Assembly: GCA_964559675.1 (NCBI GenBank)
Contig: CAZLHJ010000001.1
Span: 56,285 to 120,284, forward strand
Direction: 5' to 3'
Source: Candidatus Woesearchaeota archaeon
GTDB taxonomy: Archaea; Nanobdellota; Nanobdellia; Pacearchaeales; GW2011-AR1
Length of the DNA stretch: 64,000 nt
A program made the translations under genes and the position numbers. Within the stretch, counting starts at the first letter, position 1. Each line of letters begins with the position of its first letter. The notes below the pieces were generated by a model. That model saw only the letters and a program-made list of their open reading frames with translations, was not told where the DNA came from and did no database searches. Shown piece by piece: positions 1-57,722 of this stretch.

Positions 1-160
1 TAATATAATCTTCAAATTCAACCCCTAATTTTTGCTTAAAGTTTTCTTTAACATCTATCTCAGTAATTACTCCAAATCCTTCCTTTTTCAGAGCTTCTTT
101 AACTAAACTAATTACCTCATTAAATTCTATTTCAAGCTCGATTTTATCTCCAATTCTCAT
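1..160 (-). CDS. DUF302-family protein, 5' portion only (gene runs off window start)
   Basis: Reverse-strand translation from ATG at 160-158 gives MRIGDKIELEIEFNEVISLVKEALKKEGFGVITEIDVKENFKQKLGVEFEDYI, matching the DUF302 pattern GFGV..EID....F...LG.....Y.ILG. Start overlaps the stop of the upstream cupredoxin gene (ATGA). Confidence 0.5.
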   Translation of the reverse strand, partial: MRIGDKIELEIEFNEVISLVKEALKKEGFGVITEIDVKENFKQKLGVEFEDYI

Positions 161-588
161 TCTACGATTATCTTCCCTGTACCCATTCCCATTGAGCATG
201 CAAAAGTGTAAGTCCCTTTCTTTGTAGGTGTGAACTCAACTGTATCTTGAGGAGTTCTCAAATATTCTCTAACTCCAAATTCTCTAATTGTGAAATCTCT
301 AAAGCATCCATATACACTAGAGTCTAAAGATATACTAACTGGCTGATTAACTTTAACTTTAACTGTATTAGGGTAATAATTATAATTTTTCATTCCGATA
401 ACCACTTCTTGAATTTCACCACTCCCAGAATTTCCAGAGCCAATTAAATCTTCTCCTCTAGATTCTCCAGAACCTAACATAATGTATCCTGCTATGATTA
501 TCACGACAAATATTCCTATCAAATACAAAGTATTCTTTTTAATTTTCATTGGAATAACACACTCCTCGGACCAAACACAATCATCCAT
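157..588 (-). CDS. cupredoxin-like domain protein, N-terminal membrane anchor
   Basis: N-terminal TM helix. C-terminal domain YYPNTVKVKVNQPVSI...TFACSMGMG resembles the cupredoxin_1 fold (PF13473-like: PGtYeyyCs...). Confidence 0.55.
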   Translation of the reverse strand: MDDCVWSEECVIPMKIKKNTLYLIGIFVVIIIAGYIMLGSGESRGEDLIGSGNSGSGEIQEVVIGMKNYNYYPNTVKVKVNQPVSISLDSSVYGCFRDFTIREFGVREYLRTPQDTVEFTPTKKGTYTFACSMGMGTGKIIVE

Positions 589-1229
589 GTAGTAATAATA
601 GTAAGAACAAAACTCAATATAATTGTTATCATATTATCTTCAGTATGCTCTCTTTCTCTTCCACGTGTTTCAGTATAAATCATATAATTAAGCCCAATCA
701 CAATAATTGCAGATATAAACCAAACAACTATTCCTGCTAATTTCAAATTATCATTAATCATCATCACTGCAGTCATAGCACCCATTAATCCGCCCATGAA
801 TCCTGCCATTGTTCCCTCCATGAAACCCATAACTCCACAACATTTCCCATTCCAAATACCAAATAAAATTCCGCTTGACATTCCTATAATGCTTCCCCAG
901 AACATTCCATTAGTAGAAGCAACAAAAAATCCTGGAAGAAATCCTGCAATCATTCCAATTGTCATTCCAATCATCATTCCAGACATACACGCGAAATGTT
1001 TGTAAGCTCTAACCTGCCTTACAGAAGGAAGTATAATAGCATAACTCAAGATTGCAAAAAAGATGAAAAAGCCATACTTAGGAATAAAGCTATCTATTTC
1101 TCTAAGCTTCATAAAATATAAAATGCTTAAAACTATAAACGAAGTAAGTAGTGAAATGAATACGGTTTTTACCAATTCGCCCTCAACCCCATCATTATTC
1201 AGAGATTTTACAAATTCTTTAAACGACAT
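546..1229 (-). CDS. Met/Gly-rich polytopic membrane protein (possible Cu(I)-handling)
   Basis: Multiple TM helices carrying repeated M-x-G-M motifs (MSGMMIGMTIGMIAG, GMFWGSIIGMSSG, GVMGFMEGTMAGFMGGLMGAM). The 5' end overlaps the next gene; the true start may be an internal Met. Confidence 0.5.
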   Translation of the reverse strand: MSFKEFVKSLNNDGVEGELVKTVFISLLTSFIVLSILYFMKLREIDSFIPKYGFFIFFAILSYAIILPSVRQVRAYKHFACMSGMMIGMTIGMIAGFLPGFFVASTNGMFWGSIIGMSSGILFGIWNGKCCGVMGFMEGTMAGFMGGLMGAMTAVMMINDNLKLAGIVVWFISAIIVIGLNYMIYTETRGREREHTEDNMITIILSFVLTIITTWMIVFGPRSVLFQ

Positions 1230-1526: not shown

Positions 1527-2033
1527 TTATACATCAATCTTACAAATTCCGACAATAGATTTACTAGTGAGATAAATCGAAAGTAATAAAATTAAAATTC
1601 CAACTAATTGTAATTCAATCCCTTTAAACGGAAAATAAGTAAGTGCGAGAGGCATCCCAATCAAACCAAATAAAAATGCTCCACATGTAGGGCATCCGAC
1701 ACCGAAAGCACTAACTCCAGATATAATAAATCCAAAAAAACCTTTCTTCTCTACTTTCTTATAATTATTAAATTTAAATAAAATCATAGAAAATAAAATC
1801 CCAGATAATCCAGATATAAACAATATGCTCATTATGCTCGCGCTCACAAATAATTCTCCAGACATCATGGCAGATATCCAAATGCTATAATTGGCTACTT
1901 TTGATACAAGTAAATAATAAAGAAAAGAAAAAGAAATTAATCCAAAAATTAAACCTATTACTTTATATTTCCAATTACTAAAAACTAAATTCATAGATTT
2001 TTGAACACATTCAAATCGTTTCATTCTAAACAC
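1527..2033 (-). CDS. membrane protein with intramembrane CPTCG (CxxC) motif
   Basis: Four to five TM helices; GVGCPTCGAFLFGLIGMP sits inside a helix. Overlaps the neighbouring genes. Confidence 0.5.
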   Translation of the reverse strand: MFRMKRFECVQKSMNLVFSNWKYKVIGLIFGLISFSFLYYLLVSKVANYSIWISAMMSGELFVSASIMSILFISGLSGILFSMILFKFNNYKKVEKKGFFGFIISGVSAFGVGCPTCGAFLFGLIGMPLALTYFPFKGIELQLVGILILLLSIYLTSKSIVGICKIDV

Positions 2034-2233
2034 TCCTTGTAGATATTAGGATGGTGGCCCATATGTTCTCTCCATTCTTCGTCAGTATATCCTGGTGGAG
2101 TTTGACATCTCTCATCAACAGATTTTCCAGAATCTCTCCAAGCCTGTATTATTCCTGGGAAAAAGGTTAAGATTAACAATGATAAAATTAATACACCCAT
2201 AACTACATAGATAATTATTTCTTTTTTATTCAT
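2021..2233 (-). CDS. small single-TM protein with C-terminal Cys/His-rich tail
   Basis: TM helix followed by ...ERCQTPPGYTDEEWREHMGHHPNIYKECLE. ATGA overlap with the downstream gene. Confidence 0.4.
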   Translation of the reverse strand: MNKKEIIIYVVMGVLILSLLILTFFPGIIQAWRDSGKSVDERCQTPPGYTDEEWREHMGHHPNIYKECLE

Positions 2234-2694
2234 TTTTTGCCCCCTTTCATTTTCATTAAATGATTTCTCATAATAAATATTCCAAATAGATTAGAGACAA
2301 TTCCCAAAACTAAAAACCAGTCTTGATATTTAGTTACGAATATAGCTAACCCTGAAAATCCTACAAATGGAATCACATTAAATAAGAAATGACTACAACA
2401 AGCTAACATGCTTCCAGCTGATACTCCTCCCGTTCCAATTGCTGTTCCGGTTACTTGGGCAGAATGCCTTATTGCACTAAAAATTCCAATCTGAGCTCCA
2501 AATCCAATAGCAAGGGGAAAAAATAAGAACCATTTGCTTCTTAAACTCAAGAGAGCAAACTCAAAACCTTGAAAGATAGAAACGATAGAAACATAAAAAA
2601 TTAATAATCCAAGCCCAGCTAACAACCCAATTAAAACAGGTTTATTCATTTCTCCTTTTTCACTCTTTTCAACATTACAACAATCCATTACCAA
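2230..2694 (-). CDS. membrane protein, N-terminal MDCC and intramembrane ACCSH motif
   Basis: Begins MVMDCCNVEKSE; polytopic; carries GSMLACCSHFLF. Confidence 0.5.
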   Translation of the reverse strand: MVMDCCNVEKSEKGEMNKPVLIGLLAGLGLLIFYVSIVSIFQGFEFALLSLRSKWFLFFPLAIGFGAQIGIFSAIRHSAQVTGTAIGTGGVSAGSMLACCSHFLFNVIPFVGFSGLAIFVTKYQDWFLVLGIVSNLFGIFIMRNHLMKMKGGKK

Positions 2695-3131
2695 TTTTTA
2701 CAACACTCCACTATTTTTTTCATAACTTTTCCAACTTTCCCATTAGATCTATAAAAATAAATTAATCCAAATAAAATCCAAACTACTAACGCAATAACTC
2801 CTTCCTGAATTAAATTTTCAAGAGTGAGTATATAATATCCTATTAATAACAATGTTAAAATGAAAGGTAACCTAAATACCAATAATTCTTTCCGTGCCTT
2901 TTTCTCAAAAGTATAAAATATACCTAATAAAGTCATACCTATCATTATCCCAATCAATAATAAATTATTAAACAGTCCTTGATAAAATAAAACTAATAAA
3001 ATTATCCAAGTTAATGAAAAAGCTAAACAAATTGAACAAATACCTTCTTTTGTTTTTTTAGGAAGAAATTCCCTAAATATTAATATTAAAAAAAATAAGC
3101 CGATTATTAAAAATAATATCTTCTCAATCAT
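2688..3131 (-). CDS. membrane protein, C-terminal ECC motif
   Basis: Polytopic; ends KKIVECCKNW. Overlaps the flanking genes by 4 to 7 bp. Confidence 0.45.
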   Translation of the reverse strand: MIEKILFLIIGLFFLILIFREFLPKKTKEGICSICLAFSLTWIILLVLFYQGLFNNLLLIGIMIGMTLLGIFYTFEKKARKELLVFRLPFILTLLLIGYYILTLENLIQEGVIALVVWILFGLIYFYRSNGKVGKVMKKIVECCKNW

Positions 3132-3646
3132 GTTAAATTTAATTGAATTAAACCTCCAATTATTATTAACATAATTAATGTAAGAAGAGTTCCTTGAAAT
3201 GGAATTATCTTTCCGTTCCTTGCCTTAGTTATCTTTCTACTTAATGTAGGCGAGATAAATACAATCAATGCCCCGAGTAAGCTAGCTCCCAATGAATAAT
3301 CTACTGCATAGGTAGTTCCATATTCTCCCATGAAAGACAAATATAATGGTCCAATCGCCTTGAAAATTGGAAGCAAAGGTAACAAGGTAGCTAAGAAAAC
3401 TACTATAATGATTACACTCTTTTGATATGGGATATATTTCTTATTAACTAATCTAGAGAACCACATTCCCATAGACATCGAAAATGCTCCAATAAATAAA
3501 GCAACTACTACTTTACTCACTCCAAGCCAAACTGCCCCTGCAGCAGCCGCTCCCGCTCCAATTGTGCATAATGGACAATGAGCCATTACACTACTAGCTA
3601 AGAAAATAGGAATTAAAAAAATAAAAAATAATTTTTTAAATGCCAT
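3128..3646 (-). CDS. membrane protein with HCPLC (CxxC) motif in first TM helix
   Basis: MAFKK...SSVMAHCPLCTIGAGAAAAG; polytopic. Confidence 0.5.
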   Translation of the reverse strand: MAFKKLFFIFLIPIFLASSVMAHCPLCTIGAGAAAAGAVWLGVSKVVVALFIGAFSMSMGMWFSRLVNKKYIPYQKSVIIIVVFLATLLPLLPIFKAIGPLYLSFMGEYGTTYAVDYSLGASLLGALIVFISPTLSRKITKARNGKIIPFQGTLLTLIMLIIIGGLIQLNLT

Positions 3647-3647
3647 C

Positions 3648-4121
3648 TTAAATTCTCATGAACTCCTGATAGCTTCCATCATTATTTACTGAATAAATGA
3701 CAAAGTCTCCTCTTTTATTTCCAGGCATTCCCGGAGATCCTTCAGGCATTCCAGGCATAGCAATTCCCTTTATATTAGGTTTTTCTGAGAGCAATTTCTC
3801 AACTGCCTCTAAAGGTATATGTCCTTCAACAAAATAATCTCCTATAATTGTCGTGTGACAACTTCTAAGTTCATTAGGAACCCCATACTTATCTTTAATA
3901 GGGTCTACACTTTGCCCATTAATCTCTTCCGCTTTAAGTGTCCCCTTCCTCTGGAAATAATTGACATATACGTCACAACATCCGCATGTAATTGATTTGT
4001 ATATTTTTACATCCACTTGTGCATCAATATTTTCAAAAGAACCTGAACTCTTTCCATTTAAGGCAAAAAATCCTAAAATAAGGATGACTACAACTCCAAT
4101 AAGTAAATAAGTTTTTTTCAT
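3648..4121 (-). CDS. DUF411/CopG-family copper-binding protein (secreted or membrane-anchored)
   Basis: Signal anchor followed by YKSITCGCCDVYV, GVPNELRSCHTTIIGDYFVEGHIPLEAVEKLLSEKPNIKGIAMPGMPEGSPGMP. This is the CxCC, SCHT and GH(I/V)P signature of DUF411/CopG proteins from copper-resistance operons. Confidence 0.85.
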   Translation of the reverse strand: MKKTYLLIGVVVILILGFFALNGKSSGSFENIDAQVDVKIYKSITCGCCDVYVNYFQRKGTLKAEEINGQSVDPIKDKYGVPNELRSCHTTIIGDYFVEGHIPLEAVEKLLSEKPNIKGIAMPGMPEGSPGMPGNKRGDFVIYSVNNDGSYQEFMRI

Positions 4122-4130
4122 TTTATAATT

Positions 4131-4367
4131 TTAGCAACCTCCTACCATTCCGCCGTACGATGATGCTGCACTTTTTGCAACACTTGTTGCACTCTGAACT
4201 CCAGAGCTTCCAACTGCACCTGCCTTGAATGTAAGGAATAATGCCAAAAAGAATAATGCAGCTATAACTATCCACATTATAATTCTTCTATCCATTCTAA
4301 AATTTCCTCCTTTCACTTTAATTTCTTTACAACAATTATCTTCTTCTTTAGTCTTACAACAATCCAT
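4131..4367 (-). CDS. small Cys-rich single-TM protein with C-terminal GGMVGGC
   Basis: MDCCKTKEEDNCCKEIK, one TM helix, a Gly/Ser/Ala linker, and the C-terminal ...SSYGGMVGGC*. Shares this terminus with 4413..5084. Confidence 0.5.
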   Translation of the reverse strand: MDCCKTKEEDNCCKEIKVKGGNFRMDRRIIMWIVIAALFFLALFLTFKAGAVGSSGVQSATSVAKSAASSYGGMVGGC

Positions 4368-4412
4368 GTTACATTAAATGGGAAACGGATGCTACCCAAT
4401 AAAAAAACAAAT

Positions 4413-5084
4413 TTAGCATCCTCCGACCATACCTCCTCCAGATGATTTACCTTGTTCAATCCCTCTGTATAAATTAGAAGCTAAATTGACATAATCTTTT
4501 GAATCTATTCCGTTTGCTTCTAAGACTTGAGCTTTCTGTTCATGAATCCCTGGGAAGAATAACACTTTCCACTTTCCAAGTTCAGATAAGATCTCTAAGT
4601 CGCTCATTTCAGGATTATTAATAAGCAAATATTTAGCTAGTCCTCTCATAGCATAACTATGTGCGCAACCGCATGCTCTTTGCCCATTACTAAATATAAT
4701 TGAATCAGCTCCACAGCAGTATTCACAACTAATTGAACCTGCAATTCTAATATACCTCTCCATCTGTTCAGAATTTAATTCTAAGTCTTCATGTTGAGAT
4801 AATTTCTTTATAGTTGAGTCCGCTAATCTAGGATTTGAAGCAGAAACATCATCATATTTGACCCCAAGTTTCTCACCATATACTGCAGGAACTCCGGTTG
4901 GAATTATGTCTGAAGCAGAAACGGTTCCTACTCCAGTGGCTACTGATCCTCCAGAACCTCCAGTATAAATTCTTCCAGCATTAAATACTAAGACTAAAGC
5001 TAGTATCGCAATAATGCCGAGTTGAATATAAAATTCAGTATTGGTCTTTTCCCCTCCTTTCATTTCACTTTTATGTGTTTTCAT
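4413..5084 (-). CDS. membrane-anchored Cys-rich protein with C-terminal GGMVGGC
   Basis: N-terminal TM helix, a GS-rich linker, the Cys cluster SCEYCCGADSIIFSNGQRACGCAH, and the C-terminus ...KSSGGGMVGGC*. Confidence 0.55.
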   Translation of the reverse strand: MKTHKSEMKGGEKTNTEFYIQLGIIAILALVLVFNAGRIYTGGSGGSVATGVGTVSASDIIPTGVPAVYGEKLGVKYDDVSASNPRLADSTIKKLSQHEDLELNSEQMERYIRIAGSISCEYCCGADSIIFSNGQRACGCAHSYAMRGLAKYLLINNPEMSDLEILSELGKWKVLFFPGIHEQKAQVLEANGIDSKDYVNLASNLYRGIEQGKSSGGGMVGGC

Positions 5085-5189: not shown

Positions 5190-5678
5190 ATGGAAAACAA
5201 GTTTGTAGGTTATCTTTTATTAGGGATCTCAATATTATTTATAATCATAATTCTAATGTTTAATTCAACTTTAAAGGAAATAATTTCCTCATCTTGTGGA
5301 GCAGAACATTCAATTGTTTGTCCTATGAATCAAACAGTAAATCAACAAACTTATCTTGCATTAAGTATTGTAGGATTACTATTAATTGTAGGCACAGTAT
5401 TAATATTTTCAAAACCTCAAAAAGAAATAATCTTTAAAACAAAAACCATAGAGAAAAAAGCTCAAAAGAAGAAGATAGATACTTCAGAATTAAAATCAGA
5501 AGAAAAATCAGTCTTTGAGTTAATTCAGAATAATAAGGCAGTGTTCCAAGCAGATTTGATTGAAAAGACTGGATTCGGAAAAGCAAAAATGACTCGAATT
5601 ATAGACCGATTAGAAGGCCGTGGTTTAGTCGAAAGAAAAAGACGTGGAATGACGAATGTTGTTGTCTTGAAGGAATAA
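5190..5678 (+). CDS. membrane-anchored winged-helix (MarR/TrmB-like) transcriptional regulator
   Basis: N-terminal TM helix, an extracytoplasmic segment with two Cys (SSSCGAEHSIVCP), a second TM helix, then a C-terminal wHTH: SVFELIQNNKAVFQADLIEKTGFGKAKMTRIIDRLEGRGLVERKRRG. Confidence 0.7.
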   Translation: MENKFVGYLLLGISILFIIIILMFNSTLKEIISSSCGAEHSIVCPMNQTVNQQTYLALSIVGLLLIVGTVLIFSKPQKEIIFKTKTIEKKAQKKKIDTSELKSEEKSVFELIQNNKAVFQADLIEKTGFGKAKMTRIIDRLEGRGLVERKRRGMTNVVVLKE

Positions 5679-5680
5679 AT

Positions 5681-6295
5681 TTACCTAGACACAAAAACAA
5701 TATCTTCATCAGTGCCGTTTGATCTTCTAGCTTTTTCAAAAACTTTCTTTTTAATCTTAAGATCTTTCTCAGGCAAATATGGTCCAGAATTATTCACATA
5801 AATATATTCATCGTCATATCCAGTTATCGGAACAAAATGCCCATTATATTTATCTTCACTTCCACCAAGAATAATATTCCAATTCAATAAAACAAACGAG
5901 ACGCAATTCTCAGAAATCTTTTCTTCTATTTCTTTTAACTCCAATTGCTTCTCAAATAATTGAACTCCTGCAGATTTACTCTCCTCAATCAATCTATTTA
6001 CTTTTTCTTTTAATTCTTCTAATCCCTCAGTCTTTTGCTTATAATAATCTAGATTGAAGTGTTCTGGATTAAATTCTAAAACCTTTGAGAAAAATTCAAC
6101 TCTAAATCCAGATAATGAAAGTGCCTTTGCTAATCCTAAAGTGGTAGTTGCCCCTCCCCTTTCAGGATAGATAATCTCTTTATTTTTTCTTCATTGAATT
6201 CCTTGCCAAAATAAGAAAAAATCATCTTTAATGTAATCGGGCCACAATCATTAGAATTTTCTGGCTGAATATAAAGGGGAATATCTAATTTCATA
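5681..6295 (-). pseudogene. C39-like (BtrH/papain-fold) cysteine peptidase interrupted by a 1-nt frameshift in a T7/A7 run
   Basis: Upstream frame: MKLDIPLYIQPENSNDCGPITLKMIFSYFGKEFNEE (the C39_2 catalytic-Cys motif QxxNDCGP). Downstream frame, which is the listed ORF 5681..5992: ...GHFVPITGYDDEYIYVNN (the His motif). The two frames meet at tattttttct, 6181..6190. Confidence 0.7.
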
Positions 6296-55953: not shown

Positions 55954-57722
55954 AATTTCCTATATTGACCTTGCTGATTAATAAGATCATTATGTTTACC
56001 AATCTGAACTATCTTTCCTTTTTCCAGAACAACAATTTTATCTGCTTTCATAATTGTACTTAATCTATGTGCAATAATTATGCTTGTTCTCCCTTGCATT
56101 AATTTTTCTAAATCTTTTTGTATCTCATATTCTGTTTCTGAATCAAGAGCAGAGGTAGCTTCATCTAAAACTAAAATTTTCTTATTAGCTAAAATTGCCC
56201 TTGCAATTGAAACTCTCTGTCTTTCTCCTCCAGACAATTTTACTCCTCTTTCTCCCACAATTGTATTTTCTTTCTGAGGCAAATCCTTTATCAATCTGTC
56301 AAGTTGAGCGAATTTAATAGCTTTAAAGACTTCTTCTTTACTCGCAGAAGGATTAGAAAATTTGATATTATTAAAAATACTATCATCAAATAAAATTGCT
56401 TCTTGAGGAACAATGCTTAATTCTCCTCTTAAAGATTCTTGTTTAACATTTCTTATGTCTACTCCATCAATTTTTATACTCCCTCTCTTTACATCATATA
56501 ATCTGTACAATAGTTTAACTAAAGTTGTTTTTCCACACCCAGAATGTCCAACTAAAGCAATTTTCTCTCCAGAATTAACATCTAATGTAATTCCATGCAA
56601 CGCCCTATTTTTCTTCCCATCATATGTAAACTCAACATTATCAAACTTAATTTCTCCTCTCTTAATATTCAATTTAGGTGCATTTGGCTTATCTTCAATT
56701 TCATTATTTACTTCAGCATATTTGAATAGGTCGTCTACATCTCCAAGAGAAGTATAAAACCTTCTTATCCCGTGTACAAATCCAAATAATGGATTCACAA
56801 GATTAAGATAAACTGTATAAATGAAAGTTAGAGTTCCAATTGTAATCTCTCCATTTAACAATTTTATTAACGGGAAATAAATAAGGAAAAATGTTCCAAT
56901 TCCTAGAATTAAACTCTCTCCTGCTCCAAACCACATTCCATAATTCCAAAATTTAACTAATTTAATTTTAGTTTCTTCAGCTAATTTTCCAAATTTTCTC
57001 TTAATCCAATTCTCTTTTCCAAAATACTTAACAGAATCAATATTAGTAAACGTATCTGCAATATTTGCTTTCTCTATATCTTCTGCAGCGTTAGCCTCGT
57101 ACTGGGCTTTCTGCTGTTTCTTTGAGATATATATTCCAAATGCAAGGAAAGTTACAGAGGTTAAAAGTAAAACTAAAGCAGAGATCTTATCGAAATAATA
57201 AATTGATCCTCCAACAATAAGAATTTGTAAAATCAATGGGGCGAAATTAAATATAAAAAAGTCAGTTAAGCCTTCAACTGCTCTTCCTCCTCTATTCATT
57301 CTAGCAATTAAACTTCCAGTCTTATGCGTTACGTGGAATCCATGGTGTAAATTGACTATATGGTTGAAGAATTTTGTTTTTATATCAAACATCATTTGAG
57401 ATTCGACTCTATTCAATAAACTAATTTGAACAATACTTATAACGAATTTAGAAATAATTACTAAAATAAACGCAATTCCTACTCCAATTAATGCTTGAAC
57501 AAAGAAATTTCTCGCAAGCTCTCCAGCAACATATTCAGTTCCATTATCAATTACAATTTTAAATAAAAATTTATCGACAACAGACAAACCTTCTCTCAAT
57601 GTAGTAAATATGATAATGAAAACAAAAAGCCACCTATATACTCCAGCTACCCTGAAGTAAGTTTTTATGTTTTTCATAAAATCTATTTTCTCATCTGGTT
57701 TTTTTCTGCCTTGAACTCCCAT
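55917..57722 (-). CDS. ABC transporter, fused permease/ATP-binding exporter (MsbA-like)
   Basis: Six-TM N-terminal domain; GHSGCGKTT, LSGGERQRVSIARA, LVLDEATSALD. Confidence 0.95.
   Translation of the reverse strand: MGVQGRKKPDEKIDFMKNIKTYFRVAGVYRWLFVFIIIFTTLREGLSVVDKFLFKIVIDNGTEYVAGELARNFFVQALIGVGIAFILVIISKFVISIVQISLLNRVESQMMFDIKTKFFNHIVNLHHGFHVTHKTGSLIARMNRGGRAVEGLTDFFIFNFAPLILQILIVGGSIYYFDKISALVLLLTSVTFLAFGIYISKKQQKAQYEANAAEDIEKANIADTFTNIDSVKYFGKENWIKRKFGKLAEETKIKLVKFWNYGMWFGAGESLILGIGTFFLIYFPLIKLLNGEITIGTLTFIYTVYLNLVNPLFGFVHGIRRFYTSLGDVDDLFKYAEVNNEIEDKPNAPKLNIKRGEIKFDNVEFTYDGKKNRALHGITLDVNSGEKIALVGHSGCGKTTLVKLLYRLYDVKRGSIKIDGVDIRNVKQESLRGELSIVPQEAILFDDSIFNNIKFSNPSASKEEVFKAIKFAQLDRLIKDLPQKENTIVGERGVKLSGGERQRVSIARAILANKKILVLDEATSALDSETEYEIQKDLEKLMQGRTSIIIAHRLSTIMKADKIVVLEKGKIVQIGKHNDLINQQGQYRKLWNLQKGGYLKE

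Follow-up and report, generated by a model that had tools for sequence, protein, structure and literature searches.

A strictly C-terminal MVGGC tail links a Cys-rich surface domain with single-pass mini-proteins in a predicted copper operon of DPANN archaea

Two adjacent genes on the minus strand of a Candidatus Woesearchaeota archaeon contig (CAZLHJ010000001.1, assembly GCA_964559675.1) encode proteins that end in the same seven residues, GGMVGGC. They lie in a stretch of 64,000 nucleotides (nt; positions 56,285 to 120,284 of the contig), which is the whole of the DNA analysed here and is hereafter called the window. The longer protein, which we term the core, carries a Cys-rich domain between its transmembrane (TM) anchor and the tail, and the shorter, S1, is a tail-only mini-protein (Table 1). 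An earlier note, made from the sequence alone, had given the common ending, the lengths of 223 and 78 amino acids (aa) and the start of S1 (MDCCKTKEEDNCC) correctly, and had described the two proteins as paralogues with the same architecture. That description does not hold: BLASTP of the core against S1 pairs only the tail and the TM/linker region (E 0.002-0.005), which rules out true paralogy, and the 223-aa protein contains a globular Cys-rich domain of ~150 aa that the 78-aa protein lacks. No other open reading frame (ORF) in the window, which has 32% G+C, shows an ending of the GGMVGGC type, and the composition-based probability of a given heptapeptide is ~6e-10. The two genes differ by synonymous substitutions at 4 of the 7 codons of GGMVGGC and are identical at 32 of their last 60 coding nucleotides, which indicates conservation at the protein level and not a recent duplication.

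The tail is conserved throughout the core family, for which a search of 90%-identity clusters gave 1,820 relatives (E <= 1e-3). The earlier note held that absence of the motif from orthologues would mark it as a chance local duplication; among the best 120 of the 1,820 relatives, 114 end in MVGGC and 5 in QVG[NS]C. An exhaustive phmmer search over 50%-identity representatives gave 283 core relatives, and of the 150 listed, which extend to ~35% identity, 120 end in Cys; all 13 relatives of S1 end in MVGGC. The 120 comprise 68 MVGGC, 26 QVGGC and, for the remainder, MVGAC, MVGSC, MVGDC, W[VA]G[DE]C, MIGGC and similar close variants, with an extended form, L-P-x-[MQ]-V-G-G-C, in distant core members. 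The non-Cys endings are mostly evidently truncated fragments, and a few listed members have at least one residue beyond the Cys (for example P0133, P0239, P0121 and the longer P0233). Across 64 aligned sequences of diverse members, C120, C123, C124, G134, C138, C140, H142, G148, P178, G221 and C223 are invariant, and the linker ahead of the tail varies in both length and composition. The terminal C223 is no less invariant than the His and the five Cys of the core, and an alignment restricted to bacteria of the candidate phyla radiation (CPR) gives the same invariance pattern.

The position of the motif is equally strict. Among 9,647 ORFs, called mechanically in 160 loci of archaea of the DPANN group, [MQ]VGGC is terminal 260 times and internal 0 times, which suggests that the carboxylate takes part in recognition or ligation, or that the end is inserted in a pocket. 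The shared ending is a real, strictly C-terminal and conserved functional tag, as the earlier note had supposed, and its remark that no such motif had been described also stands, in that searches of Pfam, NCBIfam and the full-text literature gave nothing for MVGGC as a protein motif. The alternative that the ending has no specific function, and arose by local duplication or by chance from the composition of Gly-rich linkers, draws on the fact that Gly/Ser low-complexity linkers, present in both proteins, can align spuriously. We give it almost no credence: the motif is kept over about 1,800 clusters in two domains of life, the heptapeptide is improbable on composition, and the orthologue endings, the terminal-to-internal count and the codon differences together rule out chance or recent duplication.

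In one subgroup (P0137, P0141 and P0145) W[VA]G[DE]C replaces MVGGC after acidic linkers (SSDSGGWAGDC, SSEDGDWVGDC), and from these sequences the subgroup may be a halophile-adapted lineage. The Trp that takes the place of Met there recalls CusF, in which a Trp is a cation-pi ligand of Cu(I).

Core relatives are found in 507 species-representative genomes. The best 80 are all DPANN archaea (Pacearchaeota, Woesearchaeota and Nanoarchaeota), and the DPANN locus counts given below rest on these best 80 of the 507 genomes, with many loci ending early at contig ends. A distant branch of the family carries names such as Candidatus Parcubacteria and Paceibacterales, that is, CPR bacteria. Among the named matches the family appears confined to DPANN archaea and CPR bacteria, two unrelated ultra-small radiations that often co-occur in groundwater, and this distribution suggests inter-domain gene transfer or shared ecological selection.

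The tail behaves as a module. The motif closes 190 ORFs of the 80 DPANN loci, namely 79 cores and 111 small single-pass proteins encoded directly downstream, and the tail is borne by at least four architectures. Besides the core these are S1 (an optional cytoplasmic MDCC...CC, a TM helix, an Ala/Ser linker and the tail), S2 (with GWTENEIMNYEMHG; a TM helix, GK[IL]DTTGWTENE[IK]MNYEMHGT[IV]PAR, a linker and the tail) and S3 (a TM helix, a linker and NLxxLPSMVGGC). A tail-only gene lies <=1.5 kb downstream of 74 of the 79 tailed cores, two or more such genes accompany 28 of the 79, and an S1 gene directly follows the core gene in 59 of the 80 loci, as it does here; the window holds neither a second core nor an S2-type protein. 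S3 adjoins a second, divergent core paralogue, CDYCC...CGCAHS, which keeps all the invariant Cys and the His and often lacks a tail of its own. A scan of metagenomes with this paralogue returned 77 cores, 67 of them tail-less, and where at least 900 nt of downstream sequence was available an S3 gene follows the tail-less core within 1.5 kb in 43 of 45 cases. The ten CDYCC cores that do have a tail are more divergent, and S3 is present beside nine of them as well; the contig of the tenth stops 166 nt downstream. The residues ahead of the pentapeptide go with the system, being S/G-G-G in the core, S1 and S2 of the CEYCC system and L-x-x-L-P-x in the tailed cores and S3 of the CDYCC system.

A tail-less domain followed by an S3 gene for the tail is a natural split into two genes, and of all the evidence it speaks most strongly for a tail that acts on or together with the core domain and is able to act in trans. 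Moreover, the core domain is the one partner of the tail that DPANN and CPR operons share, and in the five CPR loci the core is the sole tail-bearing protein. The earlier note missed this main point, that in function the tail goes with the CE[YF]CC...CGCxH domain, which can also receive it in trans. Whether the core domain and the [MQ]VGGC-COOH tail make up a two-part DPANN/CPR surface system, in which a receptor domain would be served by genetically separate, membrane-tethered, arm-only mini-proteins with the five-residue terminal peptide as their sole functional element, is a broader proposition that we regard as possible while leaning slightly towards doubt.

Most CDYCC cores are 400-490 aa long and have a four-TM domain like that of the operon protein m168 (Table 1) fused at the N-terminus (L026 15816-17024, most in L088-L152; P0237 and P0193), with an intramembrane CP[VT]C and a cytoplasmic CxxC. 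By sequence, this fusion reads as a Rosetta-stone link between the separate m168 gene of the window (1527-2033) and the core domain. Another recurrent element is M[DE]CC near the N-terminus, seen in 32 tailed mini-proteins and 20 other ORFs of the 80 loci, some of the latter looking like separately called N-terminal pieces. In the window, cytoplasmic Cys pairs open S1 (MDCCKTKEEDNCC, 4329-4367, minus strand), m154 ((MV)MDCC, 2677-2688, minus strand) and the cupredoxin (MDDCVWSEEC, 559-588, minus strand), and such a pair may bind metal in the cytoplasm as the counterpart of the outer tail.

An AlphaFold2 model of the core, built with the 64-sequence alignment, has a mean predicted local distance difference test (pLDDT) score of 90.3 and a predicted template modelling (pTM) score of 0.76. 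The model consists of the TM helix (aa 16-43) and a mostly helical domain with small beta-knuckles, which hold C120/C123 and C138/C140 and run into a helix from H142. Within it the tail reaches a pLDDT of 81-86, too high for a disordered segment, compared with ~52 in the core-less S1 that served as control, and from this difference we infer that the tail packs against the core domain. The fold has no counterpart in the Protein Data Bank (PDB) by Foldseek (best E 0.88, TM score < 0.2), neither core nor S1 matched a PDB sequence (profile search), Pfam (E up to 0.1) or NCBIfam, and none of the 240 listed homologues has a Pfam assignment. By the positive-inside rule, the N-terminal side is richer in Lys and Arg than the C-terminal side in 120:0 DPANN cores, 71:0 S1, 26:0 S2 and 48:10 S3 proteins, so an N-in/C-out orientation is predicted, with the domain and the tails outside the cell.

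Past S1 the operon continues on the minus strand and runs from 5084 to 157 in the order core, S1, DUF411, m172, m147, m154, s70, m168, m227 and cupredoxin, an order that is conserved across the 80 DPANN loci. Pfam scans of 12-15 orthologues of each of the membrane proteins gave no consistent family that would identify them as peptidases or transferases. For m147, 3 of 15 orthologues have weak VKOR matches (best E 0.004) and one a weak DsbB match, all below the Pfam cut-offs, and the protein may be a membrane thiol oxidoreductase. An ORF related to m168 is also present in CPR locus L087.

Table 1 Genes and sequence features of the tail operon in the window (aa, amino acids; TM, transmembrane)
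Feature	Position	Strand	Characteristics	Conservation or match
Core protein	4413..5084	(-)	223 aa; cytoplasmic N-terminus, TM anchor aa 16-43, Gly/Ser linker, ~150-aa Cys-rich domain, Gly/Ser linker, MVGGC; ends KSSGGGMVGGC	
Core Cys/His cluster	4659..4727	(-)	C120-E-Y-C123-C124...C138-G-C140-A-H142	Invariant in alignment, n = 64
Core pentapeptide	4416..4430	(-)	MVGGC, aa 219-223	G221 and C223 invariant
Tail-only mini-protein S1	4131..4367	(-)	78 aa; starts MDCCKTKEEDNCC; cytoplasmic MDCC...CC N-terminus, one TM helix, Ala/Ser linker; ends SSYGGMVGGC	
S1 pentapeptide	4134..4148	(-)	MVGGC, aa 74-78	Invariant in 13/13 family members
DUF411/CopG-type copper protein	3648..4121	(-)	N-terminal anchor, CGCC and MPGMPxGSPGM	PF04214 E 8e-25; 45/80 loci
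m172 membrane protein	3128..3646	(-)	Invariant A-H-C-P-L-C-T just past signal/anchor	59/80 loci; no family
m147 membrane protein	2688..3131	(-)	Invariant CxxC and C-terminal E-C-C	30/80 loci; faint VKOR/DsbB-like signal
m154 membrane protein	2230..2694	(-)	N-terminal MDCC, invariant A-C-C-S-H	53/80 loci; no family
s70 small anchored protein	2021..2233	(-)	C...YTDEEWREHMGHHP...C, no tail	46/80 loci
m168 four-TM protein	1527..2033	(-)	Invariant G-C-P-x-C-G in TM helix, C-terminal Cys	
m227 polytopic membrane protein	546..1229	(-)	Met-rich; CMSGMMIGMTIGM, GKCCGVMG	24/80 loci
Anchored CupA-like cupredoxin	157..588	(-)	C...C-x-M-x-M ligands	Cupredoxin_1 E 5e-12; 35/80 loci
Membrane-anchored MarR-type winged-helix regulator	5190..5678	(+)	Divergent	DUF7343/MarR; upstream of core gene in 68/80 loci

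The small s70 has no tail, and its 70 aa (PPGYTDEEWREHMGHHP) loosely resemble the S2 motif GWTENEIMNYEMHGTIP (S2 being found in L002-L073), both being tiny anchored Met/His modules; the window has s70 and no S2. The divergent regulator has two TM segments around a loop with two Cys (SSSCGAEHSIVCPMNQ), which is predicted to lie outside with the DNA-binding domain in the cytoplasm, and the same type recurs beside the second, CDYCC operon. Judged by this layout it could be a one-component sensor of the external metal or redox state. Beyond the regulator, two short adjacent ORFs on the minus strand (5681-5992, 103 aa, and 6136-6294, 52 aa) both match C39-like peptidase and Guanylate_cyc_2 models and appear to be the two parts of a single gene interrupted by a frameshift or stop, or else a pseudogene. 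They have no counterpart in the 80 related loci, which rules out this C39-like peptidase as the enzyme that processes the tail.

The company of the core gene points to copper. The DUF411 ORF aligns with the CopG structure 6WIS (E 1e-19), CGCC and MPGMPxGSPGM being conserved, and in CopG a tetranuclear Cu cluster is held by CxCC and two Met (PMC7558416). The best PDB matches of the cupredoxin are CupA (2MRY/4F2E, E 1.3e-6) and the N-terminal domain of CopA (4F2F), with the C...CxMxM ligands aligned; CupA is a pneumococcal Cu(I) chaperone that hands Cu(I) to CopA (PMC7558416). On a matching contig (DYHJ01000002.1, GCA_020724245.1) the region past the left edge of the window encodes a DUF302 protein, a heavy-metal-associated (HMA) domain protein and a P-type ATPase. 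A P-type ATPase on the same strand is present in 21 of the 45 loci with enough flanking sequence, usually preceded by an MxCxxC protein. CPC, YN and MxxSS occur in 27/27 of the ATPases, a combination that is the Cu(I)/Ag(I) P1B-1 signature of Argüello's classification. Where genes separate a CDYCC core from S3, their products are often secreted proteins that contain 11-22% Met.

In 4 of the 5 loci from CPR bacteria, the gene immediately upstream of the core encodes a repressor of the CsoR/RcnR family with a YC...HxxxC pattern; CsoR uses two Cys and one His to bind Cu(I) (PMC7558416). The CPR operons of the same five loci also encode DUF1573, SfLAP, DsbD_TM, thioredoxins, DsbA, DUF411 and cupredoxin proteins, one locus has a weak MerT match and one an HMA P-type ATPase. 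With its linked P1B ATPase and HMA/CopZ-like proteins, its CopG and CupA-like protein and, in CPR, the adjacent CsoR-family repressor, the operon belongs to the copper-homeostasis class, its metal specificity being predicted from sequence signatures.

Other genes of the CPR loci (L083 14101-14772, L085 13468-14082 and L086 16437-16732; also L083 11416-12795) are membrane methyltransferases of the ICMT/PEMT family, found in 3 of the 5 operons, a TPMT/TehB-type methyltransferase in one locus and TrmO_N in three. A CPR NifU_N gene (L085 5250-6908) contains an intein that includes a LAGLIDADG endonuclease domain (Pfam Intein_splicing, LAGLIDADG_3).

The reading that we favour, and to which we give an even chance, is that MVGGC forms the end of an outward-facing Met/Cys arm on a tether, which would relay Cu(I) by docking at the Cys and His residues clustered in the core. 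The core would be anchored by its one N-terminal TM helix with the domain outside the cell, and from the domain a flexible Gly/Ser/Ala linker of variable length would lead to the end, Met (or Gln)-Val-Gly-Gly-Cys-COOH. This arm would dock end-on into the cluster CE[YF]CC-x13-CGCxH, where a thiophilic cargo, in all likelihood Cu(I), would be bound exchangeably by the terminal thiolate and probably also by the Met/Gln side chain and the free carboxylate. The separate anchor-linker-tail mini-proteins (S1 in the window, S2 and S3 elsewhere) would serve as extra or replacement arms that dock in trans into this domain, allowing thiol-to-thiol ligand exchange at the cell surface. Such a relay could either feed, or be fed by, CopG/DUF411, the Cys-motif membrane proteins, the CupA-like cupredoxin, CopZ and the Cu(I) P1B-ATPase.

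Several points weigh against the copper-relaying arm. Docking is read from a single quantity, the pLDDT of the model. Gln replaces Met in about a quarter of the tails and is a poorer Cu(I) ligand. Other cargoes are possible for CsoR-family and CPC-type proteins, and the CPR context comprises five loci only, with mechanically called ORFs. Finally, the five core Cys and the one tail Cys add up to six, which would fit three extracellular disulfides as well, and thiol-redox genes accompany the tail: DsbD_TM, thioredoxins and DsbA in the same CPR operons, and glutaredoxin-like and DsbA-like genes and the faint VKOR signal in DPANN.

These last points are the basis of the main alternative, in which the terminal Cys does not bind metal and instead forms a disulfide with one of the five core Cys. 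It could do so as a mobile electron carrier between the CxxC/CxC pairs of the core and its partners, in the manner of the shuttle Cys of Erv2, Ero1 and DsbD, or as a staple, that is, a permanent covalent link, which for the tail-only proteins would be intermolecular. An even number of Cys in a predicted extracytoplasmic protein speaks for such a scheme, as do the core motifs of the CxxC and CGC type and the redox genes just named (DsbD_TM/CcdA, thioredoxin/redoxin and DsbA in CPR; DsbA-like and glutaredoxin-like genes in the second DPANN operon; the weak VKOR/DsbB signal of m147). The m168-type domain on the CDYCC cores, with its intramembrane CPxC and cytoplasmic CxxC, has a DsbD-like layout as well. 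However, a disulfide needs neither the invariant His beside CxC nor the conserved Met/Gln four residues before the Cys, and the Met/His motif of S2 and the cytoplasmic CC...CC of S1 point to metal. A fixed staple is also hard to reconcile with the surplus of tail-only proteins next to cores that have a tail of their own. The strongest context is copper-specific (CopG, CupA, CopZ, the P1B-1 ATPase, Met-rich proteins and CsoR), and redox genes are to be expected in copper operons too, where they keep ligand thiols reduced. We consider a disulfide shuttle or staple unlikely, and it is compatible with the docking part of the arm reading.

A second alternative takes the strict terminal position at face value as a tag for an enzyme that cleaves MVGGC-COOH or modifies its Cys, by S-lipidation, carboxyl methylation, decarboxylation, cyclisation or attachment to the envelope. 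The 260:0 count and the several otherwise minimal bearers of the tail resemble a recognition tag shared by multiple substrates. The core domain might itself be that enzyme, with its own tail and the mini-proteins as substrates, given that its invariant Cys and His could in principle be catalytic; a more radical version of our proposal would likewise make the core domain an enzyme that covalently modifies or ligates the terminal Cys. The ICMT/PEMT-family methyltransferases of the CPR operons also fit, as ICMT relatives in eukaryotes methylate C-terminal cysteine carboxylates. Such enzymes use cytoplasmic S-adenosylmethionine, however, and the tails are predicted outside; no ICMT-like protein was detected in the window or among the DPANN operon proteins. 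The DPANN and CPR operons have no conserved peptidase, transferase or sortase family in common, and the C39-like fragments of the window are absent from all 80 related loci. We think a processing or modification tag quite improbable. Among the roles offered by the earlier note, that of a terminal metal ligand fits best, given the copper-handling operon, and we found no support for lipidation or cyclisation, for which no enzyme is conserved in both groups, or for sorting.

Much of microbial diversity belongs to DPANN archaea and CPR bacteria, in which most conserved surface proteins lack an assigned function. Here, we define an uncatalogued domain family with about 1,800 clusters at 90% identity in 507 species-level genomes, a directly searchable five-residue terminal signature and a group of 50-100-aa mini-proteins overlooked or miscalled by routine annotation, all of them tied to a Cu(I) operon. 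The natural two-gene split of domain and tail offers ready-made material for work on the docking of a terminal peptide arm. If the arm reading is true, it would add an extracytoplasmic, trans-acting member to the known swinging cysteine arm mechanisms and would help to explain how organisms with minimal genomes handle copper at their exposed surface; if the arms are exchangeable carriers, they would represent a new way of building an extracytoplasmic relay for metals or thiols.

Several known C-terminal signals look similar at first sight. PGF-CTERM, PEP-CTERM, GlyGly-CTERM and LPXTG are likewise short C-terminal signatures on otherwise unrelated proteins of one genome, and the L-P-x-M-V-G-G-C of distant members superficially recalls LPXTG. 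Sortase-type signals are tripartite, with the motif followed by a hydrophobic TM helix and a basic C-terminal cluster, whereas here the stop codon comes directly after MVGGC, which is terminal in 260/260 cases; this makes a sortase, archaeosortase, exosortase or rhombosortase signal unlikely. No NCBIfam CTERM model matched the core or S1, and no sortase-like family was found among the DPANN and CPR operon proteins, to which the search was confined. CaaX and Rab prenylation signals need a Cys at -4 or a terminal CC/CXC, and the tail has a single Cys at -1 after Gly-Gly. Ubiquitin-like and sulfur-carrier proteins with a C-terminal GG (ThiS, MoaD and SAMP) can be set aside, since the model is helical with knuckles rather than beta-grasp and the tail is predicted outside; no ThiF/MoeB-type gene occurs in the operons. 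A double-glycine leader of the C39 type is excluded in that the GG is C-terminal with the Cys alone after it, and the C39-like ORFs have no counterpart in the 80 loci. The PCYCGC-motif domain (PF13798), considered as a possible relative of CxxCC...CGC, gave no Pfam match at E up to 0.1. Literature searches on DPANN/CPR copper resistance and C-terminal Cys swinging arms brought up no previous account of the tail/core system.

Among metal-handling proteins there is a likeness to CopG, which is also extracytoplasmic, occurs in copper operons and combines a dense Cys motif (CxCC in CopG, CxxCC in the core) with a Met ligand; a CopG homologue is itself encoded two genes downstream of the core. However, the core has no DUF411 or 6WIS sequence match and its predicted fold is mostly helical with small beta-knuckles, and CopG has no conserved terminal Cys tail. 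Neither core nor S1 belongs to DUF411/CopG, given that neither matches PF04214, of which the ORF at 3648-4121 is the true member. The operon as a whole resembles the relays of the Mer system, which lead from MerP to MerT to MerA, and of CupA-CopA, in that paired-Cys sites form a chain across the membrane, from outer through intramembrane to cytoplasmic. Here this layout would be made up of the m168-type domain on the CDYCC cores (intramembrane CPxC and cytoplasmic Cys), the cytoplasmic MDCC...CC of S1 and the CupA-like protein. Unlike the Mer system, the window has no significant homology to MerT, MerP or MerC, the one weak MerT match being in a single CPR locus.

In function, the nearest known parallels, along with these Mer- and CupA-type relays, are mobile C-terminal Cys arms, known from MerA (a Cys pair), DsrC (a penultimate Cys on a flexible arm), HypE (PRIC) and the high-Mr thioredoxin reductase (TrxR; GCUG). 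They swing into a Cys site and carry Hg, sulfur, cyanide or electrons by exchange, and they share with the MVGGC tail an invariant Cys at or beside the extreme C-terminus of a flexible segment. In sequence and fold the core is related to none of them. From what the sequences reveal, an uncatalogued domain in a copper operon, matched by nothing known in sequence or fold, would here be served by an arm that is unprecedented in being supplied in trans. The arms of MerA, DsrC, HypE and TrxR are cytoplasmic and always act in cis, whereas the MVGGC arm, with its long low-complexity tether, is predicted to lie outside the cell and also has genes of its own, which encode mini-proteins of anchor plus tail beside a domain that lacks one.

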